Shown here one piece after another: positions 1,194 through 23,846 of a DNA stretch of 64,000 nt (positions within the stretch are counted from its first letter, which is position 1; every line of letters begins with the position of its first letter). A program made the translations under genes and the position numbers. Origin of the DNA: Pseudomonadota bacterium (GTDB taxonomy: Bacteria > Pseudomonadota > Alphaproteobacteria > Rhizobiales > Beijerinckiaceae); contig JAJXYV010000001.1 of NCBI GenBank assembly GCA_021780435.1, forward strand, positions 1,862 through 65,861, written 5' to 3'. Under the pieces are notes generated by a model. The model was not told the origin of the DNA and ran no database searches. It saw only the letters and a list, made by a program, of their open reading frames with translations.

Positions 1194-4129
1194 AGGCTAA
1201 AGATTCCCTTGGCGTTCCGCGCCCTAAGAAATTGGCCGCCGCCCGCTCGCGGGTCGCGGAGCTGCTGGCTTCCGCGGGCGAGGAGACGGCCTCCGGCTTG
1301 CGCGCCCTGCCGGACTGGGCGCGGCTCGAAGAGGTTCTGGTCGGGATCGCCGATCAATCGCCTTTCCTCTGGGGGCTGGCGCGGCGCAATCCCGCCGGGC
1401 TGCTGCGGTTGCGAAAAAGCGCGCCGGACGCGGCGCTGGACGAGGCGCTTCGGCGTCTCGCGGCATGCCATGCGCCCGATTGCACGGAGACACAGGCAAT
1501 GAGCCTGCTGCGCAAGGCGAAGCGGGAGACGGCTCTGATCATCGCGCTGGCGGATCTTGCGGGCGAATATGACGCCGTTGCGGCGACGAAGGCCCTGTCG
1601 CGCGCAGCGGATCGTTTCGTTGCGACCGCCCTGCGGGTCGCCTTGCGCCTCTCCGCCGACAAGCTGGCGCTTATCGATCCCGACGAGCCGGAACATGACT
1701 GTGGCCTTGTCATCCTCGCGCTCGGCAAACATGGCGCGATGGAGTTGAATTATTCTTCGGACGTCGATCTGGTCGTCTTTTTCGACGGGCGCTCGCCGGT
1801 TCTGGGAGCGGGGCCAGGGGCCAAGACCAATTCGCTGCGGCTGACCCAGCATCTCGTCAAGCTCCTGCAGGAGCGCACCGGCGACGGCTACGTGCTGCGG
1901 GTGGACTTGCGCCTGCGGCCGGATCCGGGTTCGACCGCCGCCGCCGTCTCGCTCGACGCCGCGCGGCATTATTACGAAACGCTCGGCCAGAACTGGGAGC
2001 GCGCCGCCATGATCAAGGCGCGGCCCATTGCCGGCGATCTTGCGCTCGGCGTCGATTTCCTCGACGAAATGGCCGCCTTCATCTGGCGAAAATATTTCGA
2101 CTACGCGACCATCGCCGACATCCATGCGATGAAGCGCCAGATCCACGCCGCCAAGGGCCATGCCGAAATTGCGGTCGCCGGCCATGACGTGAAACTTGGA
2201 CGCGGCGGCATCCGCGAGATCGAATTCTTCGTCCAGACCCAGCAGCTGATTTTCGGGGGACGCCGCCAGCAGTTGCGCGGCGCACGGACTCTCGAGATGC
2301 TGCGGCAACTCAGCGACGACCAGTGGATCACCCCGCAGGCGGCGGACGACCTCAGCGCCGCCTATCTCTATCTGCGCGCGGTGGAGCATCGCCTCCAGAT
2401 GCGGGACGATCATCAGACCCAGCGCCTGCCCGAGGACGAGGCGGAGTTGAAGGATTTCGCGCGCTTTTGCGGCTATGCGGGAACGGCGGGGTTTTCGAAA
2501 GACCTCCTGCGCCATTTCCGCGCGGTGGAGAAACATTATGCGCTGTTGTTCGAAAATGCGCCGGGCCTTGATTCGCGCGCTGGCAATCTGGTCTTCACCG
2601 GCGCGACCGACGATCCGGAGACGCTGGAAACCTTGCGCGAGATGGGCTTTCGCGATCCGGCGCGGGCCGCGGAGACGGTTCGCGGCTGGCATTTCGGACG
2701 CCGGCCGGCGGTCCGCAGCGCCCGCGCCCGCGAGGTGCTGACCGAACTCGTTCCGGCCCTGCTCGAAGCGTTTTCGAAATCGGGCGACGCCGATTCCTGC
2801 ATGGCCGCCCTCGACGCGGCTTTGGCCCGGATGCCGGCGGCGTCGGAACTGTTTTCGCTCCTGAAATCGAATGCGTCGATGCTCCAGCTTTTCGCCGATA
2901 TTCTTGGCGGGGCGCCGCGTCTCGCCCAAGTGATCGCCCAATCGCCCCATGTGCTGGACGTCGCGATCGATCGGGGCGTTGTCGCGGCGCCGATGCATGG
3001 CGCGGATTACGCCGGGCGCCTGGCCCATTTTCGCCATGCGGACCCCAGCCTCGAAGCCTTTCTCGACACCGCCCGCGTTTTTGCGAACGAGGAGAATTTC
3101 ATGATCGGCTTGCGGCTGTTCGCCGGGCTGATCGAGCCGGATCAGGCGGCGCGCGCCTATTCGGCGCTCGCGGAAACCATGATCGGCGCCTGCCTTGCCC
3201 GCGTCCAAACCGATTTCGCTGTCGAGCATGGGGCCGTTTCCGGCGGGCGTTGCGTCGTCCTCGGCTTCGGCAAGCTCGGCTCGCGAGAAATGACCGCGAC
3301 CTCCGATCTCGATCTGGTCCTGCTGTATGATTTTGATCCAGAGCGCGCGGAATCCGACGGAAACAGGCCACTTCACGCCACGCTCTATTACACTCGCCTC
3401 ACCCAGCGCCTGATTGCGGCGCTCACCGCGCCGACACGGCGAGGCAAGTTGTTCGAAGTGGACATGCGGCTGCGCCCCTCCGGCAACAAGGGGCCGGTGG
3501 CGACCCAGCTCGCGTCGTTCCGCGCCTATCAGGCCGGCGAGGCCGAAATCTGGGAACATATGGCGCTGACCCGGGCGCGTCCGGTCGCCGGCGACGAAAG
3601 CCTCGCCGCCGAGACCGCAGCCCTGGTCAGCGCCACGCTTTGCCGCCGGCGCGATGCGCCCGAACTGGCGAAGGCGGTGCGCGACATGCGCGCGCTGGTC
3701 GCGAAAGAAAAGGGCGAGGACGACGGCTGGAACCTGAAACTGGCCTCGGGCGGCCTGCTCGACGTCGAATTCATCGCGCAATATCTCGTATTGGCTCATG
3801 GCGGCGAGGCGCCGTCGCTGCGCAGCACTGCCACCGCGGAAATCCTGGCAGCGGCCGCGAAGGCCGGCTTCCTTGATGCGGATGCCGCCGAAACGCTGCT
3901 CAAGGCGCTGGCGCTTTACTCCAACGTCACCCAATGGCTGCGGCTGGCGCTCGAGGAAGGCGCCAACCCGCGCGAGGCCGCCGACGGCGTCAAACGCCGG
4001 ATCGCCGTCGCCACCGGCCTGCCGGATTTCGCCTTCCTGGAGCGCGAGCTGGCGGCGACGCGGAAGGCGGTGCGGAAAATCTTCACGCGCCTCATGGCGC
4101 GTGAGGAGAAGGCAAATAGCTCGGCCTGA
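1190..4129 (+). CDS. glnE: Bifunctional glutamine synthetase adenylyltransferase/adenylyl-removing enzyme
   Basis: 979 aa with two nucleotidyltransferase motifs (LGKHGAMELNYSSDVDL; FGKLGSREMTATSDLDL) and two DxRLRP motifs; ATGA overlap with the kinase stop. Confidence 0.95.
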   Translation: MKAKDSLGVPRPKKLAAARSRVAELLASAGEETASGLRALPDWARLEEVLVGIADQSPFLWGLARRNPAGLLRLRKSAPDAALDEALRRLAACHAPDCTETQAMSLLRKAKRETALIIALADLAGEYDAVAATKALSRAADRFVATALRVALRLSADKLALIDPDEPEHDCGLVILALGKHGAMELNYSSDVDLVVFFDGRSPVLGAGPGAKTNSLRLTQHLVKLLQERTGDGYVLRVDLRLRPDPGSTAAAVSLDAARHYYETLGQNWERAAMIKARPIAGDLALGVDFLDEMAAFIWRKYFDYATIADIHAMKRQIHAAKGHAEIAVAGHDVKLGRGGIREIEFFVQTQQLIFGGRRQQLRGARTLEMLRQLSDDQWITPQAADDLSAAYLYLRAVEHRLQMRDDHQTQRLPEDEAELKDFARFCGYAGTAGFSKDLLRHFRAVEKHYALLFENAPGLDSRAGNLVFTGATDDPETLETLREMGFRDPARAAETVRGWHFGRRPAVRSARAREVLTELVPALLEAFSKSGDADSCMAALDAALARMPAASELFSLLKSNASMLQLFADILGGAPRLAQVIAQSPHVLDVAIDRGVVAAPMHGADYAGRLAHFRHADPSLEAFLDTARVFANEENFMIGLRLFAGLIEPDQAARAYSALAETMIGACLARVQTDFAVEHGAVSGGRCVVLGFGKLGSREMTATSDLDLVLLYDFDPERAESDGNRPLHATLYYTRLTQRLIAALTAPTRRGKLFEVDMRLRPSGNKGPVATQLASFRAYQAGEAEIWEHMALTRARPVAGDESLAAETAALVSATLCRRRDAPELAKAVRDMRALVAKEKGEDDGWNLKLASGGLLDVEFIAQYLVLAHGGEAPSLRSTATAEILAAAAKAGFLDADAAETLLKALALYSNVTQWLRLALEEGANPREAADGVKRRIAVATGLPDFAFLERELAATRKAVRKIFTRLMAREEKANSSA

Positions 4130-4165: not shown

Positions 4166-5806
4166 TCACCCTTTGGTCAGCGCGAGCATGGCGATGCGGA
4201 TGAGGACGAGGCCTCCGGCCAGAACAAGGTAAAGCCGGAGGACGACCATCCAGCTTCGGGCCGAAAAGGACAGCCGGGCCGGCGGGAGTTGATCGAGAGG
4301 CGGCATCCGCCAGTTGGCGCGCTGCTCGCGTCCGACGACCGGGCGCGCGCCCTCCGTCTTCCTCGAGCCGGCGAAGAAAACCGGCAGGGCAGCAAGCGTC
4401 GCGAGCGCGGCGCCTCCCGCCAGGATCGAGAGGATGACCTTCTCATCGGTCGATTCCGGAAACAGCACCGACGCCGTCAGGATGATAGACAGGATCACCA
4501 GCGCGGCGATGACCAGGCCGGTGAACAGGTTCAGCCCGCGTCCGTTGACCCATGGGCCGAGCACGTCCTTGTCGTTGCACAACAGCAGCAGGAAGACTGT
4601 CGCGCTCGGCAGCAGGACGCCGGCGAGAGTCTGCACGGCGTTGGTGAGGAGGCCGAGCGGCGCGCCGGGCGTGAGCACGAGTCCGGCGGCGACGACGATC
4701 AGGCCGCAATAGACCAGGTAGAAGGCCTTGGCGTCCGAAGGCTTGCGGTGCAGCGAGTGCTTCAGGGACAGGACGTCGCCGATGGCGTAGGCGGTCGACA
4801 GCGACACCGCCGAAGCGCCGATGATCGAAGCGTCGATCAGGGCGAGGGCGAACATGATTCCCGCCACGCGGCCGGCATGTTTCTCCAGCCCCGCGGCGAC
4901 CGCGCCGGCGTCGGTGAAACCGCCGAACTCCGGGCGGCCCGCGAAGACGGCGGCGGTGAAGGCCATCATCGCCGCGGCGCCGAGGACGACCAGCACGATT
5001 CCGAGCCACAGATCGGCCTTTTCATAGGCCATGAAACGCGGCGTGATCCGCTTGTCGATGACATAGCTCTGCTGGAAGAACAGCTGCCAGGGAGCGATGG
5101 TCGTGCCGACGATGGCGATGATCAGCAGCATGACGTCGCTGAGCTTGGCCCCCTGCGGCAGCTGCGGCGTCACCATGTCGCGCGCGACCTGGCCGAGCGG
5201 CGGATGGGCCATCAGGAACACCGGGATGAGCAGCAGGCTTCCGAACACGAGAGCCATGGAGAAGCGCTCGAAACGACGAAAGCTTCCGGTGCTCGCGGCG
5301 GCCATGATGACGACGGCGGCCAAAGCCACGCCCAGTTGTTTCGAAACGCCGAGATAATCGAGCGCCAGCGCGACGCCGATGAATTCGGTGACGATCGTGA
5401 GGCCATTGAGCAGGAAGAGGTCGATCACCGAGAAGGCGCCCCAGAACTTGCCGAAACGCTCGAGGATCAGGCGAGCGTGGCCGACGCCGGTGACGACGCC
5501 GAGGCGCAGGACCATTTCCTGGTTCACGTAGAGCACCGGCACGAGCAGCAGCAGCGTCCACAAGAGGCTCGTGCCGTAATTCTGCCCGGCCTGGGTGTAG
5601 GTGCCGAAGGCGCCGGCGTCATTGTCGCCGACCATGACGATCAGGCCGGGGCCGAGAATGGCCAGCAGCGTCGTGAGGCGGTGTTTCCAGTTCGTGCGGG
5701 GGCCGTGATCGTCGTGAAGAATGACGCCGAAGGCGCCGTGGATGTGGCCGATATGCGCTTCATCCAGCACGGCGGCGCGCGCGTCGGGATTGGTGTGGAC
5801 GGTCAT
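4166..5806 (-). CDS. NRAMP-family divalent cation transporter, Mg2+-type (NRMT-like) clade
   Basis: About 11 hydrophobic segments; TM1 motif GPGLIVMVGDNDAG and TM6 motif GTTIAPW in place of MntH-type DPGN and MPH; RBS AGGAG upstream. Confidence 0.85.
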   Translation of the reverse strand: MTVHTNPDARAAVLDEAHIGHIHGAFGVILHDDHGPRTNWKHRLTTLLAILGPGLIVMVGDNDAGAFGTYTQAGQNYGTSLLWTLLLLVPVLYVNQEMVLRLGVVTGVGHARLILERFGKFWGAFSVIDLFLLNGLTIVTEFIGVALALDYLGVSKQLGVALAAVVIMAAASTGSFRRFERFSMALVFGSLLLIPVFLMAHPPLGQVARDMVTPQLPQGAKLSDVMLLIIAIVGTTIAPWQLFFQQSYVIDKRITPRFMAYEKADLWLGIVLVVLGAAAMMAFTAAVFAGRPEFGGFTDAGAVAAGLEKHAGRVAGIMFALALIDASIIGASAVSLSTAYAIGDVLSLKHSLHRKPSDAKAFYLVYCGLIVVAAGLVLTPGAPLGLLTNAVQTLAGVLLPSATVFLLLLCNDKDVLGPWVNGRGLNLFTGLVIAALVILSIILTASVLFPESTDEKVILSILAGGAALATLAALPVFFAGSRKTEGARPVVGREQRANWRMPPLDQLPPARLSFSARSWMVVLRLYLVLAGGLVLIRIAMLALTKG

Positions 5807-5851
5807 TTGCTTCTCCTGGCCCCGCGGCGTCCGGCGCGGCGCCGGGAGCCG

Positions 5852-5974
5852 TCACCAGCTCCGGATCGCCAAGCCCGCCGAACACGCGGGGAATTGAGTC
5901 TGGTCTTCTGTCGAAAGGGGGCCCGCGGACACGTCGAAATCGAGCGCCGCGGGGCTACTAGGGCCGTCTTTCAA
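5852..5974 (-). CDS. Candidate 40-aa small protein (MKDGPSSPAALDFDVSAGPLSTEDQTQFPACSAGLAIRSW), TTG start
   Basis: Hand-translated; AGGAG 7 nt upstream of TTG; fills the gap between the 69-aa ORF and the NRAMP gene on the same strand. Confidence 0.35.
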   Translation of the reverse strand: MKDGPSSPAALDFDVSAGPLSTEDQTQFPACSAGLAIRSW

Positions 5975-5992
5975 AGCGGGTCTCCTTTTGGT

Positions 5993-6202
5993 TCACGCCG
6001 CGCGCCGAATGGATATTCGGCCGGATTCGTCGAGTTGGACGACGTCAGGTCCGACCGTGGCGGATGCGGAAATCCAGACGGCGCCCAGGCGCCCGGTCGC
6101 CGGGTCCCTGACCCAGCGGCAGGTCAACGGGCTGCGCGCCACCGAACGATGGTTGCGGGGGGTGGGGACGTTCGTCCCCCGGTGTTTGAACTTGATGATC
6201 AT
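5993..6202 (-). CDS. 69-aa hypothetical protein upstream of NRAMP
   Basis: Strong Shine-Dalgarno GGAGGTGA just upstream of ATG; non-low-complexity core LTCRWVRDPATGRLGAVW. Confidence 0.6.
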   Translation of the reverse strand: MIIKFKHRGTNVPTPRNHRSVARSPLTCRWVRDPATGRLGAVWISASATVGPDVVQLDESGRISIRRAA

Positions 6203-6203
6203 G

Positions 6204-6349
6204 GCTCACCTCCGGCCCGCAGGCCTCATGGTGAGCGACATATAGCCCTCAGACGGGCTTCATATCCCTCACGCGGTCGGCGCCGCGAGCTTTCTGCAAT
6301 GTGACGGCGCCACTTGCCCGAATAACTCCGGGGTCATGCCGCCTGAGGG
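6204..6349 (-). promoter_or_regulatory. Candidate structured 5' leader with an 11-aa uORF and an SD-sequestering hairpin
   Basis: 11-bp helix 6339-6349/6246-6256 enclosing three hairpins; GCTCACC/GGTGAGC pairing (6230-6236/6204-6210) overlaps the SD; uORF 6241-6206. Confidence 0.45.
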
Positions 6350-6608
6350 GATACTGCCCATATGTCCTTGACTGGGGTTGGGAAACGGCGCGCGTCATGC
6401 GCCCGCATGTGTTCCGAATGCGCCTCGCCTTTCGCATTGTCAAGTTCAAAATGCCCGGCCGGCCTGGCTTGTCGCGCGGCGCCGCGCGACCCTGACGCGC
6501 CCCCTGACGGATGGACTATGGCGCCGCAATATTGACCGGCGTATAAGTTCACGAAGACCTTTTTACGCCCTTTCAGGGCGCGCTGCTGTTTGGATGATGG
6601 AAAAGCGA

Positions 6609-8768
6609 ATGAGCCGCATTCCCGATTTCTCGAATCTCGCCCTCGACACGGATCAGAGCGCCGCGGCGCCGGCCTTCGCCGCCGAGCCCTGGCTGACCCC
6701 GGAGGGCGTCGAGGTGAAAAGCGTTTACGGCCCCGAAGACGTCCAAGGTCTTCCGGCGGTCGATTCCTACCCCGGCGTGGCGCCTTTCCTGCGCGGTCCT
6801 TACCCCACCATGTATGTCAACCAGCCCTGGACGGTGCGGCAATATGCCGGCTTCTCCACCGCCGAGGATTCCAACGCCTTTTACCGCCGCAATCTCGCAG
6901 CGGGCCAGAAGGGCCTTTCGGTCGCCTTCGACCTCGCCACCCATCGCGGCTACGATTCCGATCATCCGCGCGTCGCCGGCGATGTCGGCATGGCGGGCGT
7001 CGCCATCGATTCCATCTATGACATGCGAACGCTCTTTTCCGGCATTCCGCTCGACCAGATGTCGGTGTCGATGACCATGAACGGCGCGGTGCTTCCGGTG
7101 CTCGCGCTCTATATCGTCGCGGCGGAAGAGCAGGGCGTGCCGGCCGAAAAGCTCTCCGGCACGATCCAGAACGACATTCTGAAAGAATTCATGGTGCGGA
7201 ACACCTATATCTATCCGCCCAAGGATTCGATGCGCATCATCTCGGATATTTTTGCCTATACTTCGCAACATATGCCGAAATTCAACTCGATCTCGATCTC
7301 CGGCTACCACATGCAGGAGGCGGGGGCGACGCAGGATCTCGAGCTCGCCTATACGCTGGCCGACGGCGTCGAATATATCCGCGCCGGCGTCAACGCCGGC
7401 CTGACGGTGGATCAGTTCGCGCCGCGCCTGTCATTCTTCTGGGCGATCGGCATGAATTTCTTCATGGAGGTGGCCAAGCTGCGCGCCGCGCGCCTGATCT
7501 GGGCCAATCTCGTGAAGCAGTTCAATCCGAAATCGGAAAAGAGCCTGCCTTTGCGCACGCACAGCCAGACCTCCGGCTGGTCGCTGACCGCTCAGGACGT
7601 CTTCAACAATGTCATCCGCACCCAGATCGAGGCCATGGCGGCGACGCAGGGGCACACCCAGTCGCTGCACACCAATGCGCTCGACGAGGCGCTGGCGCTG
7701 CCGACCGATTTTTCCGCGCGCATCGCCCGCAATACCCAGCTCTTCCTGCAGCAGGAATCGGGGACGACCCGGATCATCGATCCCTGGGGCGGCTCCTATT
7801 ATGTCGAGAAACTGACCGCCGAACTGACCCAGAAGGCCTGGGTCCATATTCAGGAGGTCGAGGCGCTCGGCGGCATGGCCAAGGCCATCGACGCCGGCAT
7901 TCCGAAACTGCGCATCGAGGAGGCGGCGGCCAAGACGCAGGCGCGCATCGATTCCGGCAAGCAGGCGGTGATCGGGGTCAACAAGTTCCGCCCCGAAAAC
8001 GAAAAGCCGATCGATGTGCTCAAGGTCGAGAACGCCGCGGTGCGCGCCCAGCAGATCGAAAAGCTGAAGCGGCTGCGCGCCGAGCGCAACGAGGCCGAGA
8101 CTCAAGGAGCGCTCGACGCTTTGACCGAGGGCGCGAAGAGCGGCGCCAATCTTTTGGCCTTGGCGATCGAAGCCGCGCGGAAAAAGGCGACGGTCGGCGA
8201 GATCTCCTTCGCGCTCGAGAAGGTGTTCGGACGCCATCGCGCCGAGATCAAGAGCATTTCCGGTGTTTACAAGCGGGAGGCCGGCGTGAATTCCACCGCC
8301 ATCGCGTCAGTGCAGCGCCAGGTCGAGGCCTTCGTCGAGAACGACGGCCGCCGGCCGCGCATCCTCGTCGCCAAGGTCGGCCAGGACGGCCATGATCGCG
8401 GCCAGAAGGTCATCGCCTCGGCCTTCGCCGATCTCGGTTTCGACGTTGACATCGGCCCGCTCTTCGCCACGCCGGAGGAGGCCGCGCGTCAGGCGGTCGA
8501 GAACGACGTTCATATCGTCGGCATTTCCTCGCTCGCGGCCGGCCATCTGACCCTTGTGCCCGAATTGCGCGCCGCGCTGGAGAAGGAAGGCCGCCCGGAT
8601 ATCATGATCGTGGTCGGGGGCGTCATTCCGCCGCAGGACTTCGACGCGCTCACCAAGGCGGGCGCCTCCGCGATCTTCCCGCCCGGCACCGTGATCGCCG
8701 AAGCCGCCGGCAAGCTGATCGACGAACTGAACCAGCGCCTCGGCTATTCCAAAGCCGCCGCGGAATGA
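6609..8768 (+). CDS. scpA: Methylmalonyl-CoA mutase, B12-dependent large subunit
   Basis: [35 protein letters not shown] and the B12-binding motif [10 protein letters not shown]; start moved to ATG 6609 (MSRIPDF). Confidence 0.95.
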
Positions 8769-23147: not shown

Positions 23148-23846
23148 TTGCGCCTTCTCGTGATCGAAGACGACAAGGACCTCAACCGCCAGCTGGTCGC
23201 CGCGCTTGAGGCGGCGGGCTATGCCGTGGATACGGCGCTGGATGGCGAGGAGGGACATTATCTCGGCGAAACAGAGCCTTATGACGCTGTGATCCTCGAT
23301 ATCGGCCTGCCGAAAATGGACGGGATTTCCGTGCTGACGGCCTGGCGCAAGGCCGGGCGGACCATGCCGGTGCTGATCCTGACCGCGCGCGACGGATGGA
23401 CCGAAAAAGTTCAGGGCTTCGACGCCGGCGCCGACGACTATGTCGCCAAGCCCTTCCATGTCGAGGAAATCCTCGCCCGCCTGCGCGCGCTTCTGCGCCG
23501 TGCGGCGGGCCACGCCTCCAGTGAACTCGTCTGCGGCCCTGTCGCGCTGGACACGCGCTCCGGACGGGTTCTCGTTTCCGGCGCGCCGGTGAAGCTCACC
23601 TCGCACGAATACCGGCTGCTCGCCTATCTCATGCACCACGCCGGGCGGGTCGTCTCGCGCACGGAAATCGTCGAACATCTCTACGATCAGGATTTCGATC
23701 GGGATTCCAACACGATCGAGGTATTCGTCGGGCGCCTGCGCAAGAAGCTCGGCGTCGATGTCCTGCATACGGTGCGCGGCCTCGGCTATGTCCTCGAACC
23801 CGATGTCGTCGAGGGGAAGCCGCAGGCGACGAGCCCGGCGCGTTAG
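23148..23846 (+). CDS. feuP: OmpR-family response regulator, FeuP-like
   Basis: MRLLVIEDD, ILDIGLP, GADDYVAKPF, winged helix SNTIEVFVGRLRKKL..TVRGLGY. Confidence 0.7.
   Translation: MRLLVIEDDKDLNRQLVAALEAAGYAVDTALDGEEGHYLGETEPYDAVILDIGLPKMDGISVLTAWRKAGRTMPVLILTARDGWTEKVQGFDAGADDYVAKPFHVEEILARLRALLRRAAGHASSELVCGPVALDTRSGRVLVSGAPVKLTSHEYRLLAYLMHHAGRVVSRTEIVEHLYDQDFDRDSNTIEVFVGRLRKKLGVDVLHTVRGLGYVLEPDVVEGKPQATSPAR

Follow-up and report, generated by a model that had tools for sequence, protein, structure and literature searches.

To our knowledge, the leader RNAs that have been established as Mg2+ sensors are of two kinds only, the M-box and the enterobacterial mgtA leader. The short open reading frames (ORFs) of the Salmonella leaders are mgtL, mgtM, mgtP and mgtQ. 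In the Salmonella mgtA and mgtCBR leaders such short ORFs are translated, and ribosome occupancy selects between alternative stem-loops (PMC3641672); a mycobacterial M-box uses a translational platform on a small upstream ORF, translation of which has been shown to prevent premature termination (PMC12810186). It was by linkage to the M-box that NrmT proteins were first recognised (PMC4072509), and Mg2+ transport by NRMTs has since been published (PMC8806188). Our search of the literature found nothing on how alphaproteobacteria sense Mg2+. Here we analyse a leader element on the minus strand of a 64,000-nucleotide (nt) stretch of Beijerinckiaceae DNA (assembly GCA_021780435.1, contig JAJXYV010000001.1, positions 1,862 to 65,861; hereafter ‘the window’, with positions counted from its first letter), where the element precedes a gene for a small arginine-rich protein and an NRMT-like Nramp gene. 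As judged by sequence comparison, it belongs to a real, conserved, cis-regulatory leader family of the Hyphomicrobiales, and apparently an undescribed one. The literature search returned no description of this leader element, and no Rfam 15 family matches it at E ≤ 10 in positions 5500-7200 of the window or at eight homologous loci, in agreement with the original prediction for this locus, which had been made from the window’s letters and could assign the leader neither to the M-box nor to yybP-ykoY.

The element spans ~185 nt, from the Shine-Dalgarno (SD) sequence of a leader ORF to the AUG of the first gene. We examined its fold on a neutral MAFFT alignment of 58 representatives with less than 80% identity (hereafter A7); the sequences compared, here and below, are phylogenetically related. 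Individual folds, subgroup folds, a model-guided alignment and A7 all yielded one architecture, and the comparative evidence shows that the RNA forms a three-way junction (P1, a two-part P2 and P3) followed by P4 and then P5 (Table 1). Standard pairs occupy 85.5% of the 1802 A7 cells, as compared to 34–49% when the partners are slid by 1–3 columns; doubly changed cells number 138 versus 43–66 for slid partners, and the covariation score is 0.262 versus 0.08–0.10, with none of 500 shuffles reaching the observed values. The leader region is also more stable than its dinucleotide shuffles (z = -3.1, 0/200 as good). Covariation of the whole domain thus bears out the conserved multi-stem leader RNA that the original prediction had proposed. 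When run on global MAFFT alignments, RNAalifold retrieved no more than P5 and a portion of P3, owing to misalignment of the stems, and the helices were defined by subgroup folds and hand-defined pairs.

The best supported helix is P2, with ~90% of cells paired and compensatory changes in nine of its ten pairs (one pair is GC 30 times and AU 21 times, another GC 30 times and AU 11 times). The 4-bp core of P1 is 78% paired across A7 and includes a pair found as CG, UA, GC and AU. P3 varies little, with a G-C to A-U change in the Roseiarcus-type loci L027 and L030 and in L200, and its register is ambiguous by 2 nt. The nucleotides of the J2/3 junction are kept despite differing frames of the leader ORF across lineages. 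P4 has double changes in all seven pairs; it is 68% paired, in a region that MAFFT aligns imperfectly. In most copies the leader stop codon falls in the P4 loop or 3' arm. P5 overlaps and pairs the SD of the 69-codon ORF (GGAGG, 6213-6209), a hairpin that the original prediction had drawn correctly, and is 92% paired, with compensation from A-U to G-C at one pair (A-U 40, G-C 7). An additional helix, P0, is specific to Rhodoblastus: its 5' arm is the SD/AUG region of the leader ORF, its 3' arm contains the AUG of an 11-codon upstream ORF (uORF), and its pair 14-137 (numbered in alignment A4) is U-A, U-G, A-U or C-G across seven sequences. Mini variants without P2 are found at L008 (genome G002), L028 and L029, the G002 copy being also without the P1 5' strand; these variants retain AUGGGCAGUA, P3, GUGAG, P4, P5 and a leader ORF, shortened to 17-21 codons with the same end sites.

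Table 1. Features of the leader locus in the window, and M-boxes of the actinobacterial orthologue loci (MFE, minimum free energy; aa, amino acids)
Feature	Coordinates	Strand	Basis or remark
-35-like TTGACA hexamer, putative leader promoter	6443-6438	minus	seen in the window and conserved among relatives
Predicted 5' hairpin, variable sequence, then UUUCC	6415-6381	minus	MFE and centroid fold
CAACCCC box	6380-6374	minus	(A/C/U)AACC(C/U/A) box in relatives
SD-like AAGGA of leader ORF	6369-6365	minus	purine-rich stretch in most copies
P0, Rhodoblastus-specific helix AUAUGUC/GACAUAU	6243-6237/6366-6360	minus	covariation
Leader ORF, 30 codons (MGSIPSGGMTPELFGQVAPSHCRKLAAPTA) and UGA	6361-6269	minus	starts in near-invariant AUGGGCAGUA, stops in GCGUGAGGG
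P1 closing helix CCCUCA/UGAGGG	6349-6344/6271-6266	minus	MFE fold and family pairing
P2 two-part hairpin	6343-6306 (outer 6343-6337/6312-6306, inner 6332-6329/6320-6317)	minus	covariation
J2/3 single-stranded junction GUCACAUUGCAGAAAGCU	6305-6288	minus	family consensus GCAACAYNG..AAG
P3 hairpin CGCGG/CCGCG	6287-6283/6276-6272	minus	97% of cells paired
Element B, GUGAGGG	6272-6266	minus	P1 3' strand, candidate anti-sequestor; holds leader stop UGA 6271-6269
P4 hairpin GCCC-GUCUGA-GGGC	6258-6245 (6258-6255/6248-6245)	minus	hairpin here in all lineages
P5 SD-sequestering hairpin GCUCACC/GGUGAGC	6236-6230/6210-6204; inner GGCC 6225-6222/GGCC 6217-6214	minus	covariation
69-codon ORF, first regulated gene (69-aa Arg-rich protein)	6202-5993	minus	3' of leader
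Nramp-family gene (546 aa)	5806-4166	minus	PF01566, E = 2.5e-82
M-boxes of actinobacterial orthologue loci	L055:2545-2715, L068:2490-2665, L077:1784-1960, L085:2495-2670, L086:2551-2721, L087:2566-2738		Rfam search

The structured domain is itself overlapped by the leader ORF, which runs through P1, P2 and P3. This ORF is open for 30-41 codons in all 58 representatives; in a set of 123 sequences, none has a stop in this frame ahead of codon 28, and in most of them early stops are present in the remaining two frames. The stop codon (UAG 22, UGA 21, UAA 15) always lies between GUGAG (element B) and the 5' arm of P5 (58/58 representatives), at a distance from the latter of 10-19 nt in 52 copies and 31-36 nt in six. 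The AUG is 105-135 nt from P5, with all three mod-3 classes of this distance represented, and in most copies it is preceded, 5-8 nt upstream, by a purine-rich stretch (AAGGA, GAAGG or AAGAG). We rejected the leader peptide as a candidate conserved protein, as only MGS is constant. Since the peptide is variable beyond MGS and conserved RNA blocks such as GCAACACAU fall in different frames across lineages, selection appears to act on the open frame and on the position of its end, and not on the peptide. In the P4 region of Bradyrhizobium copies such as L110 and L127 (GCCUAGCUGACC), the overlapping UAG and UGA of UAGCUGA close two of the three frames before the SD hairpin; such overlapping out-of-frame stops fit with insertions and deletions in P2 and P3 shifting the leader frame between species.

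BLAST searches against 60 relatives gave matches at exactly positions 6394-6188 of the window in eight genomes of the same genus, Rhodoblastus, with the best Nramp orthologue locus being that of R. acidophilus MO. With an nhmmer profile the element was located 5' of 13 among the 80 best Nramp orthologues, exclusively alphaproteobacterial ones (the member genera being Rhodoblastus, Bradyrhizobium, Rhodopseudomonas, Methylocystis, Methylocella and Roseiarcus). A covariance model returned the same 13 orthologue loci, the window and the same-genus copies, and no extra orthologue locus; neither BLAST, nhmmer nor the covariance model found the element at beta-/gammaproteobacterial or actinobacterial Nramp orthologues. 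A three-block pattern scan of a species-representative genome collection yielded 116 stretches, about 110 of them genuine, mostly from Bradyrhizobium but also from Nitrobacter, Methylovirgula, Xanthobacteraceae and many uncultured Alphaproteobacteria. Some genomes have two copies, and one contig has three. In an even sample of the order, the covariance model (R1) gave E ≤ 0.01 in 5 of 401 genomes: that of the window itself, a second with a clear match (E = 1.6e-7) and three with weak matches (E = 0.003). The element is patchy and tracks the operons described below.

Several individual loci deserve mention. The three copies on one contig are those of L168, a metagenome-assembled Xanthobacteraceae contig, where they lie within 3.7 kb (3283-3441, 4307-4465 and 6781-6939) and precede, respectively, an HMA_2-like ORF, a short ORF with an NRMT gene, and the small protein with a porin. 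At L012 (G018:C50) the P2-P3-GUGAG centre is recognisable, but neither the AUGGGCAGUA block nor the SD hairpin is left, and the element has probably decayed. A whole-genome search of the window’s assembly found a single copy; a second covariance-model match within the window (23468-23555, minus strand; 19.5 bits, E = 0.003, 74% GC) is probably spurious. Upstream of the beta- and gammaproteobacterial orthologues, including those of Paraburkholderia, Dyella, Pseudomonas and Polaromonas (loci L032, L035, L036, L038, L039, L041, L042, L043, L049 and L054, upstream of position 3001), we detected neither this leader nor an Rfam match; these regions may contain further leader types.

The first ORF after P5 usually encodes an Arg-rich protein of 49-124 aa with the motif CxW..D..G(R)L..(C/A)xW (69 aa in the window). 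At no fewer than 72 of the 118 pattern matches it is this small protein that the first ORF encodes, and in Bradyrhizobium it has the form MFEKLAKFR..NDN..CHW..GRLECRW. It has no Pfam or NCBIfam match, and its homologues are annotated as ‘hypothetical protein’ only. In the other copies the first ORF is a different short one, of 31-49 codons. Further downstream, as judged by ORF calling and clustering checked against Pfam, there follow genes for an NRMT-type Nramp protein (45 copies), an OMP-barrel/OprB porin (40 copies), an ABC permease (20 copies), an ABC ATPase with AAA_assoc_C (11 copies), MgtC (18 copies) and a cytosolic MgtE_N+CBS protein (2 copies). The last of these, a protein of ~424 aa without the membrane part, is encoded directly after the NRMT gene at L123 and L173; a pairing of nrmT with an MgtE cytosolic fragment has been described in clostridia and acidobacteria (Shin et al. 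2014, PMC4072509).

Two further lines of evidence bear on the metal. The metal site of NRMTs is DxxG-TxxA/T, as opposed to DxxN-AxxM in classical Nramp proteins (PMC8806188). The window’s Nramp protein has DAGA and TTIA, i.e. DxxA-TxxA: the classical Asn and Met are both lost, the alpha-6 half (TxxA) fits the NRMT signature, and Ala stands in place of Gly. Furthermore, six actinobacterial Nramp orthologues (64-69% identical) have an M-box of 111-131 bits on the same strand 280-840 nt upstream, five of the six at 280-510 nt, and the new leader thus occupies the position that the M-box has in another phylum. Given the downstream genes and the M-boxes of these orthologues, a Mg2+-linked signal is likely, and on this comparative evidence the leader is very probably tied to Mg2+ homeostasis; the metal link that the original prediction had drawn from a Mg2+-type Nramp gene is thus strengthened by the gene neighbourhood and the orthologue M-boxes. 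In the actinobacterial loci M-box and gene are about 180-300 nt apart, maybe leaving room for a uORF as in M. tuberculosis, and L085 has a second, divergent M-box (1482-1659, minus strand). No homologue of the small protein is present between M-box and Nramp gene in Arthrobacter, or upstream of the Paraburkholderia Nramp gene.

How might the leader work? GUGAG (6272-6268) is complementary to CUCAC of the P5 5' arm in 94.8% of cells, as compared to 28-60% in slid controls. The successive complementarities of the P1 5' strand, GUGAG, CUCAC and the SD thus suggest a four-strand switch. A terminator consensus scan of the leader found no intrinsic terminator, so that the output would be SD sequestration, unlike the transcription attenuation of the Salmonella leaders. 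We propose that the family controls Mg2+-acquisition operons through translation, by means of a Mg2+-dependent fold and the leader ORF, and we give this reading a probability of roughly 55%. At sufficient Mg2+ the junction domain would be compact, with P1 sequestering GUGAG and the start of the leader ORF buried; P5 would then be closed, and the small protein and the downstream transporter genes would be off. At low Mg2+ the domain would loosen and ribosomes would translate the leader ORF, keeping P1 open, so that GUGAG could pair with CUCAC, the SD would be freed and the operon expressed. Burial of the leader start could involve the candidate pairings CAUG:CGUG and UGGGC:GCCUA (P4 loop) and, in Rhodoblastus, P0. 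Translation of the first small ORF may, in addition, protect the transcript from premature termination.

A number of observations weigh against this reading. The GUGAG:CUCAC anti-sequestor has 5 bp and a predicted median of -11.5 kcal/mol, as compared to -14.5 kcal/mol for P5, and is only modestly better than shuffles (-9.0 kcal/mol). P1 is the weakest helix at 78% pairing, and is weak in the main Bradyrhizobium clade; the mini variants of G002 and Methylocella dispense with P2. The candidate pairings that would bury the AUG involve invariant bases, which are beyond the reach of covariation, and in a few copies of the MgtC-ABC type the SD-like stretch before the leader AUG is absent. As the retrieval pattern fixed 24 bases, the conservation of these particular bases rests on the smaller unbiased set. 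The identity of the metal is not certain, because the NrmT of A. capsulatum behaves as a Mn2+ transporter (PMC4072509). Finally, what we say of the transcription start site, of leader-ORF translation and of a Mg2+ response is deduced from sequence.

The main rival is a ribosome-read attenuator devoid of a ligand pocket, of the Salmonella mgtL/mgtP/mgtM kind, in which the occupancy or speed of ribosomes on the leader ORF, lower at low cytosolic Mg2+, would decide between P1 plus P5 and GUGAG:CUCAC. That the leader ORF and its stop are so strongly conserved in position is what one would expect of such a device, as is the order of the P1 5' strand, GUGAG, CUCAC and the SD, which corresponds to the classical 1:2 / 2:3 / 3:4 layout. 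It is at odds, however, with a peptide that is variable beyond MGS and lacks any conserved stretch of Pro or other regulatory codons, with junction nucleotides (GCAACAY.., AGUAG) that are conserved as RNA across reading frames, and with a P2 that covaries as structure. Conservation of the junction at the RNA level, P2 covariation and the variability of the peptide together indicate that the RNA folds into a domain with its own function, and we consider a pure attenuator rather unlikely.

Alternatively, the junction domain could be bound by a protein, either the Arg-rich small protein itself or another trans factor, resulting in autoregulation like that of ribosomal-protein leaders. While the small protein is basic, of unknown function and so often the first gene behind the leader, about a third of the copies precede other short ORFs or MgtC/ABC operons with no adjacent small protein, and neither the conserved leader ORF nor the replacement of the M-box would be explained; we therefore regard protein binding as improbable.

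There is a similarly small chance that the switch is as proposed but senses something other than Mg2+, such as Mn2+ or Ca2+, pH or Al3+ stress in acid soils, or the ATP/Pi status of the cell. Mn2+ is often transported by Nramp relatives, and one NrmT behaves as a transporter of this metal (PMC4072509). Most of the hosts are bacteria of acid soils, and in Salmonella MgtC is reported to be linked to ATP/Pi homeostasis (PMC7980370). Against this stand the M-box riboswitches that control the orthologues, as well as MgtC, the MgtE_N/CBS fragment and the TxxA signature (PMC8806188), all of which point to Mg2+.

The mechanism of the original prediction was built on two other features, both present in the window. 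The first is an 11-bp helix with one G-U, in which CCCUCAGGCGG (6349-6339) can pair with CCGUCUGAGGG (6256-6246); the second is the 11-codon uORF MSLTMRPAGRR (6241-6206), with GAGGG 4 nt before its AUG at 6241 and with a UGA stop (6208-6206) in frame and one codon before the ATG at 6202. The conservation and covariation check across orthologues that had been suggested at the time upheld the multi-stem domain and the SD hairpin and failed both of these features. The helix, which competes with the conserved P1, P2 and P3, is 53% paired across the 58 members of A7, as compared to 30-44% for slid controls. The uORF site has NUG in Rhodoblastus only, with 11 versus 13 codons and differing frames, and no start codon in the other genera; changes at its first base (A/G/G/U) are matched by U/C/U/A in the P0 5' arm, a covariation that explains the variation at this position. 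That the helix occludes the SD of the 11-codon uORF, translation of which would open the SD hairpin, is therefore very improbable even though Rhodoblastus relatives retain NUG at the uORF start, and their lack of conservation marks both features as lineage-specific by-products. The underlying logic, that folding would prevent translation of an upstream ORF and so leave the SD hairpin closed and the operon silent, makes a reasonable model once moved to the ORF at 6361-6269. The window also has a four-codon mini-ORF, AUGAAGCCCGUCUGA (MKPV; 6263-6249, minus strand), with a GAGGG of its own upstream; found in the window only, it closely repeats the GAGGGCUAUAUG arrangement that follows 20 nt further downstream.

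The leader lies downstream of a divergent methylmalonyl-CoA mutase gene. From TTGACA to the 69-codon ORF the intergenic region measures ~240 nt, and a 187-nt spacer separates this ORF from the Nramp gene. The TTGACA hexamer, already picked out in the original prediction, is more than chance: it is aligned in seven of nine Rhodoblastus-genus copies, and 54 of 55 representatives have a TTGACA-like hexamer 72-116 nt 5' of the leader AUG. This conserved -35 box is the sole basis of our promoter call; a sigma-70 consensus scan of the window’s leader found no consensus -10. Relatives have a hairpin of other sequence at the same spot as the predicted 5' hairpin of the window. Of 55 representatives, 31 have the (A/C/U)AACC(C/U/A) box 13-20 nt 5' of the leader AUG (at 16-20 nt in all but one), and for the CAACCCC box of the window no pairing partner was established.

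Returning to the proposed Mg2+-dependent switch, a more far-reaching version of it holds that the family is a third, structurally unrelated class of Mg2+-sensing RNA, in which the metal-binding domain is itself a translated ORF, and fold and ribosome compete for the same ~100 nt. This we put forward tentatively, as a possibility with the odds somewhat against it. If it were true, a thermodynamic signal that is weak in itself would, through translation of the leader, make the SD hairpin open in an all-or-none manner. In Bradyrhizobium and its relatives the low-Mg2+ regulon would be defined by this family, and among the components of Mg2+ uptake would be the small protein and the OprB-type porins. 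In either version, a covariation-supported leader with more than 100 copies is a directly testable candidate for a Mg2+ sensor. It would delineate a candidate low-Mg2+ regulon in the agriculturally important Bradyrhizobium, comprising NRMT, MgtC, OprB porins, an ABC transporter and a new small protein, and, as an ORF that lies within a regulatory fold and whose stop is constrained in position, it is a clean natural case in which to study the coupling of translation and folding.

How does the new leader compare to the described systems? With the yybP-ykoY Mn2+ riboswitch (RF00080) it shares the position of a putative metal-sensing leader at metal transporters. However, yybP-ykoY has a four-helix architecture and not a three-way junction, its genes encode Mn2+ exporters whereas those of the new leader function in uptake, and cmscan gave no match to it at E ≤ 10 in nine loci; a superficial likeness to yybP-ykoY (GGGCAGUAG..GAGAG to GGGGAGUAG..GAGAGAC) is supported by no model match. 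The Salmonella mgtA and mgtCBR leaders are similar in that a leader ORF, whose translation is predicted in our case, overlaps alternative stem-loops ahead of Mg2+ transporter or mgtC genes. No Rfam family matched the new leader at E ≤ 10, the presence of a Salmonella Mg-sensor model in Rfam not having been separately checked. Unlike in Salmonella, the leader ORF has no conserved Pro or other sensing codons, the positions of Pro being variable, and it is longer (30-41 codons) and spans the whole folded domain. The M-box (ykoK leader, RF00380) differs in sequence and structure, with no match at E ≤ 10 and with a ~125-nt three-way junction plus P4 and P5 in its stead, and the structured domain of the new leader is itself an ORF. 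In its setting the new leader nevertheless resembles the M-box: it precedes genes for Mg2+ transport, at orthologous NRMT-type Nramp genes it has the position and orientation of the M-box, its putative regulon is comparable to the Mg2+-transporter regulon of the M-box (PMC4072509), and in both, presumably, the compact fold at high Mg2+ is the off state.

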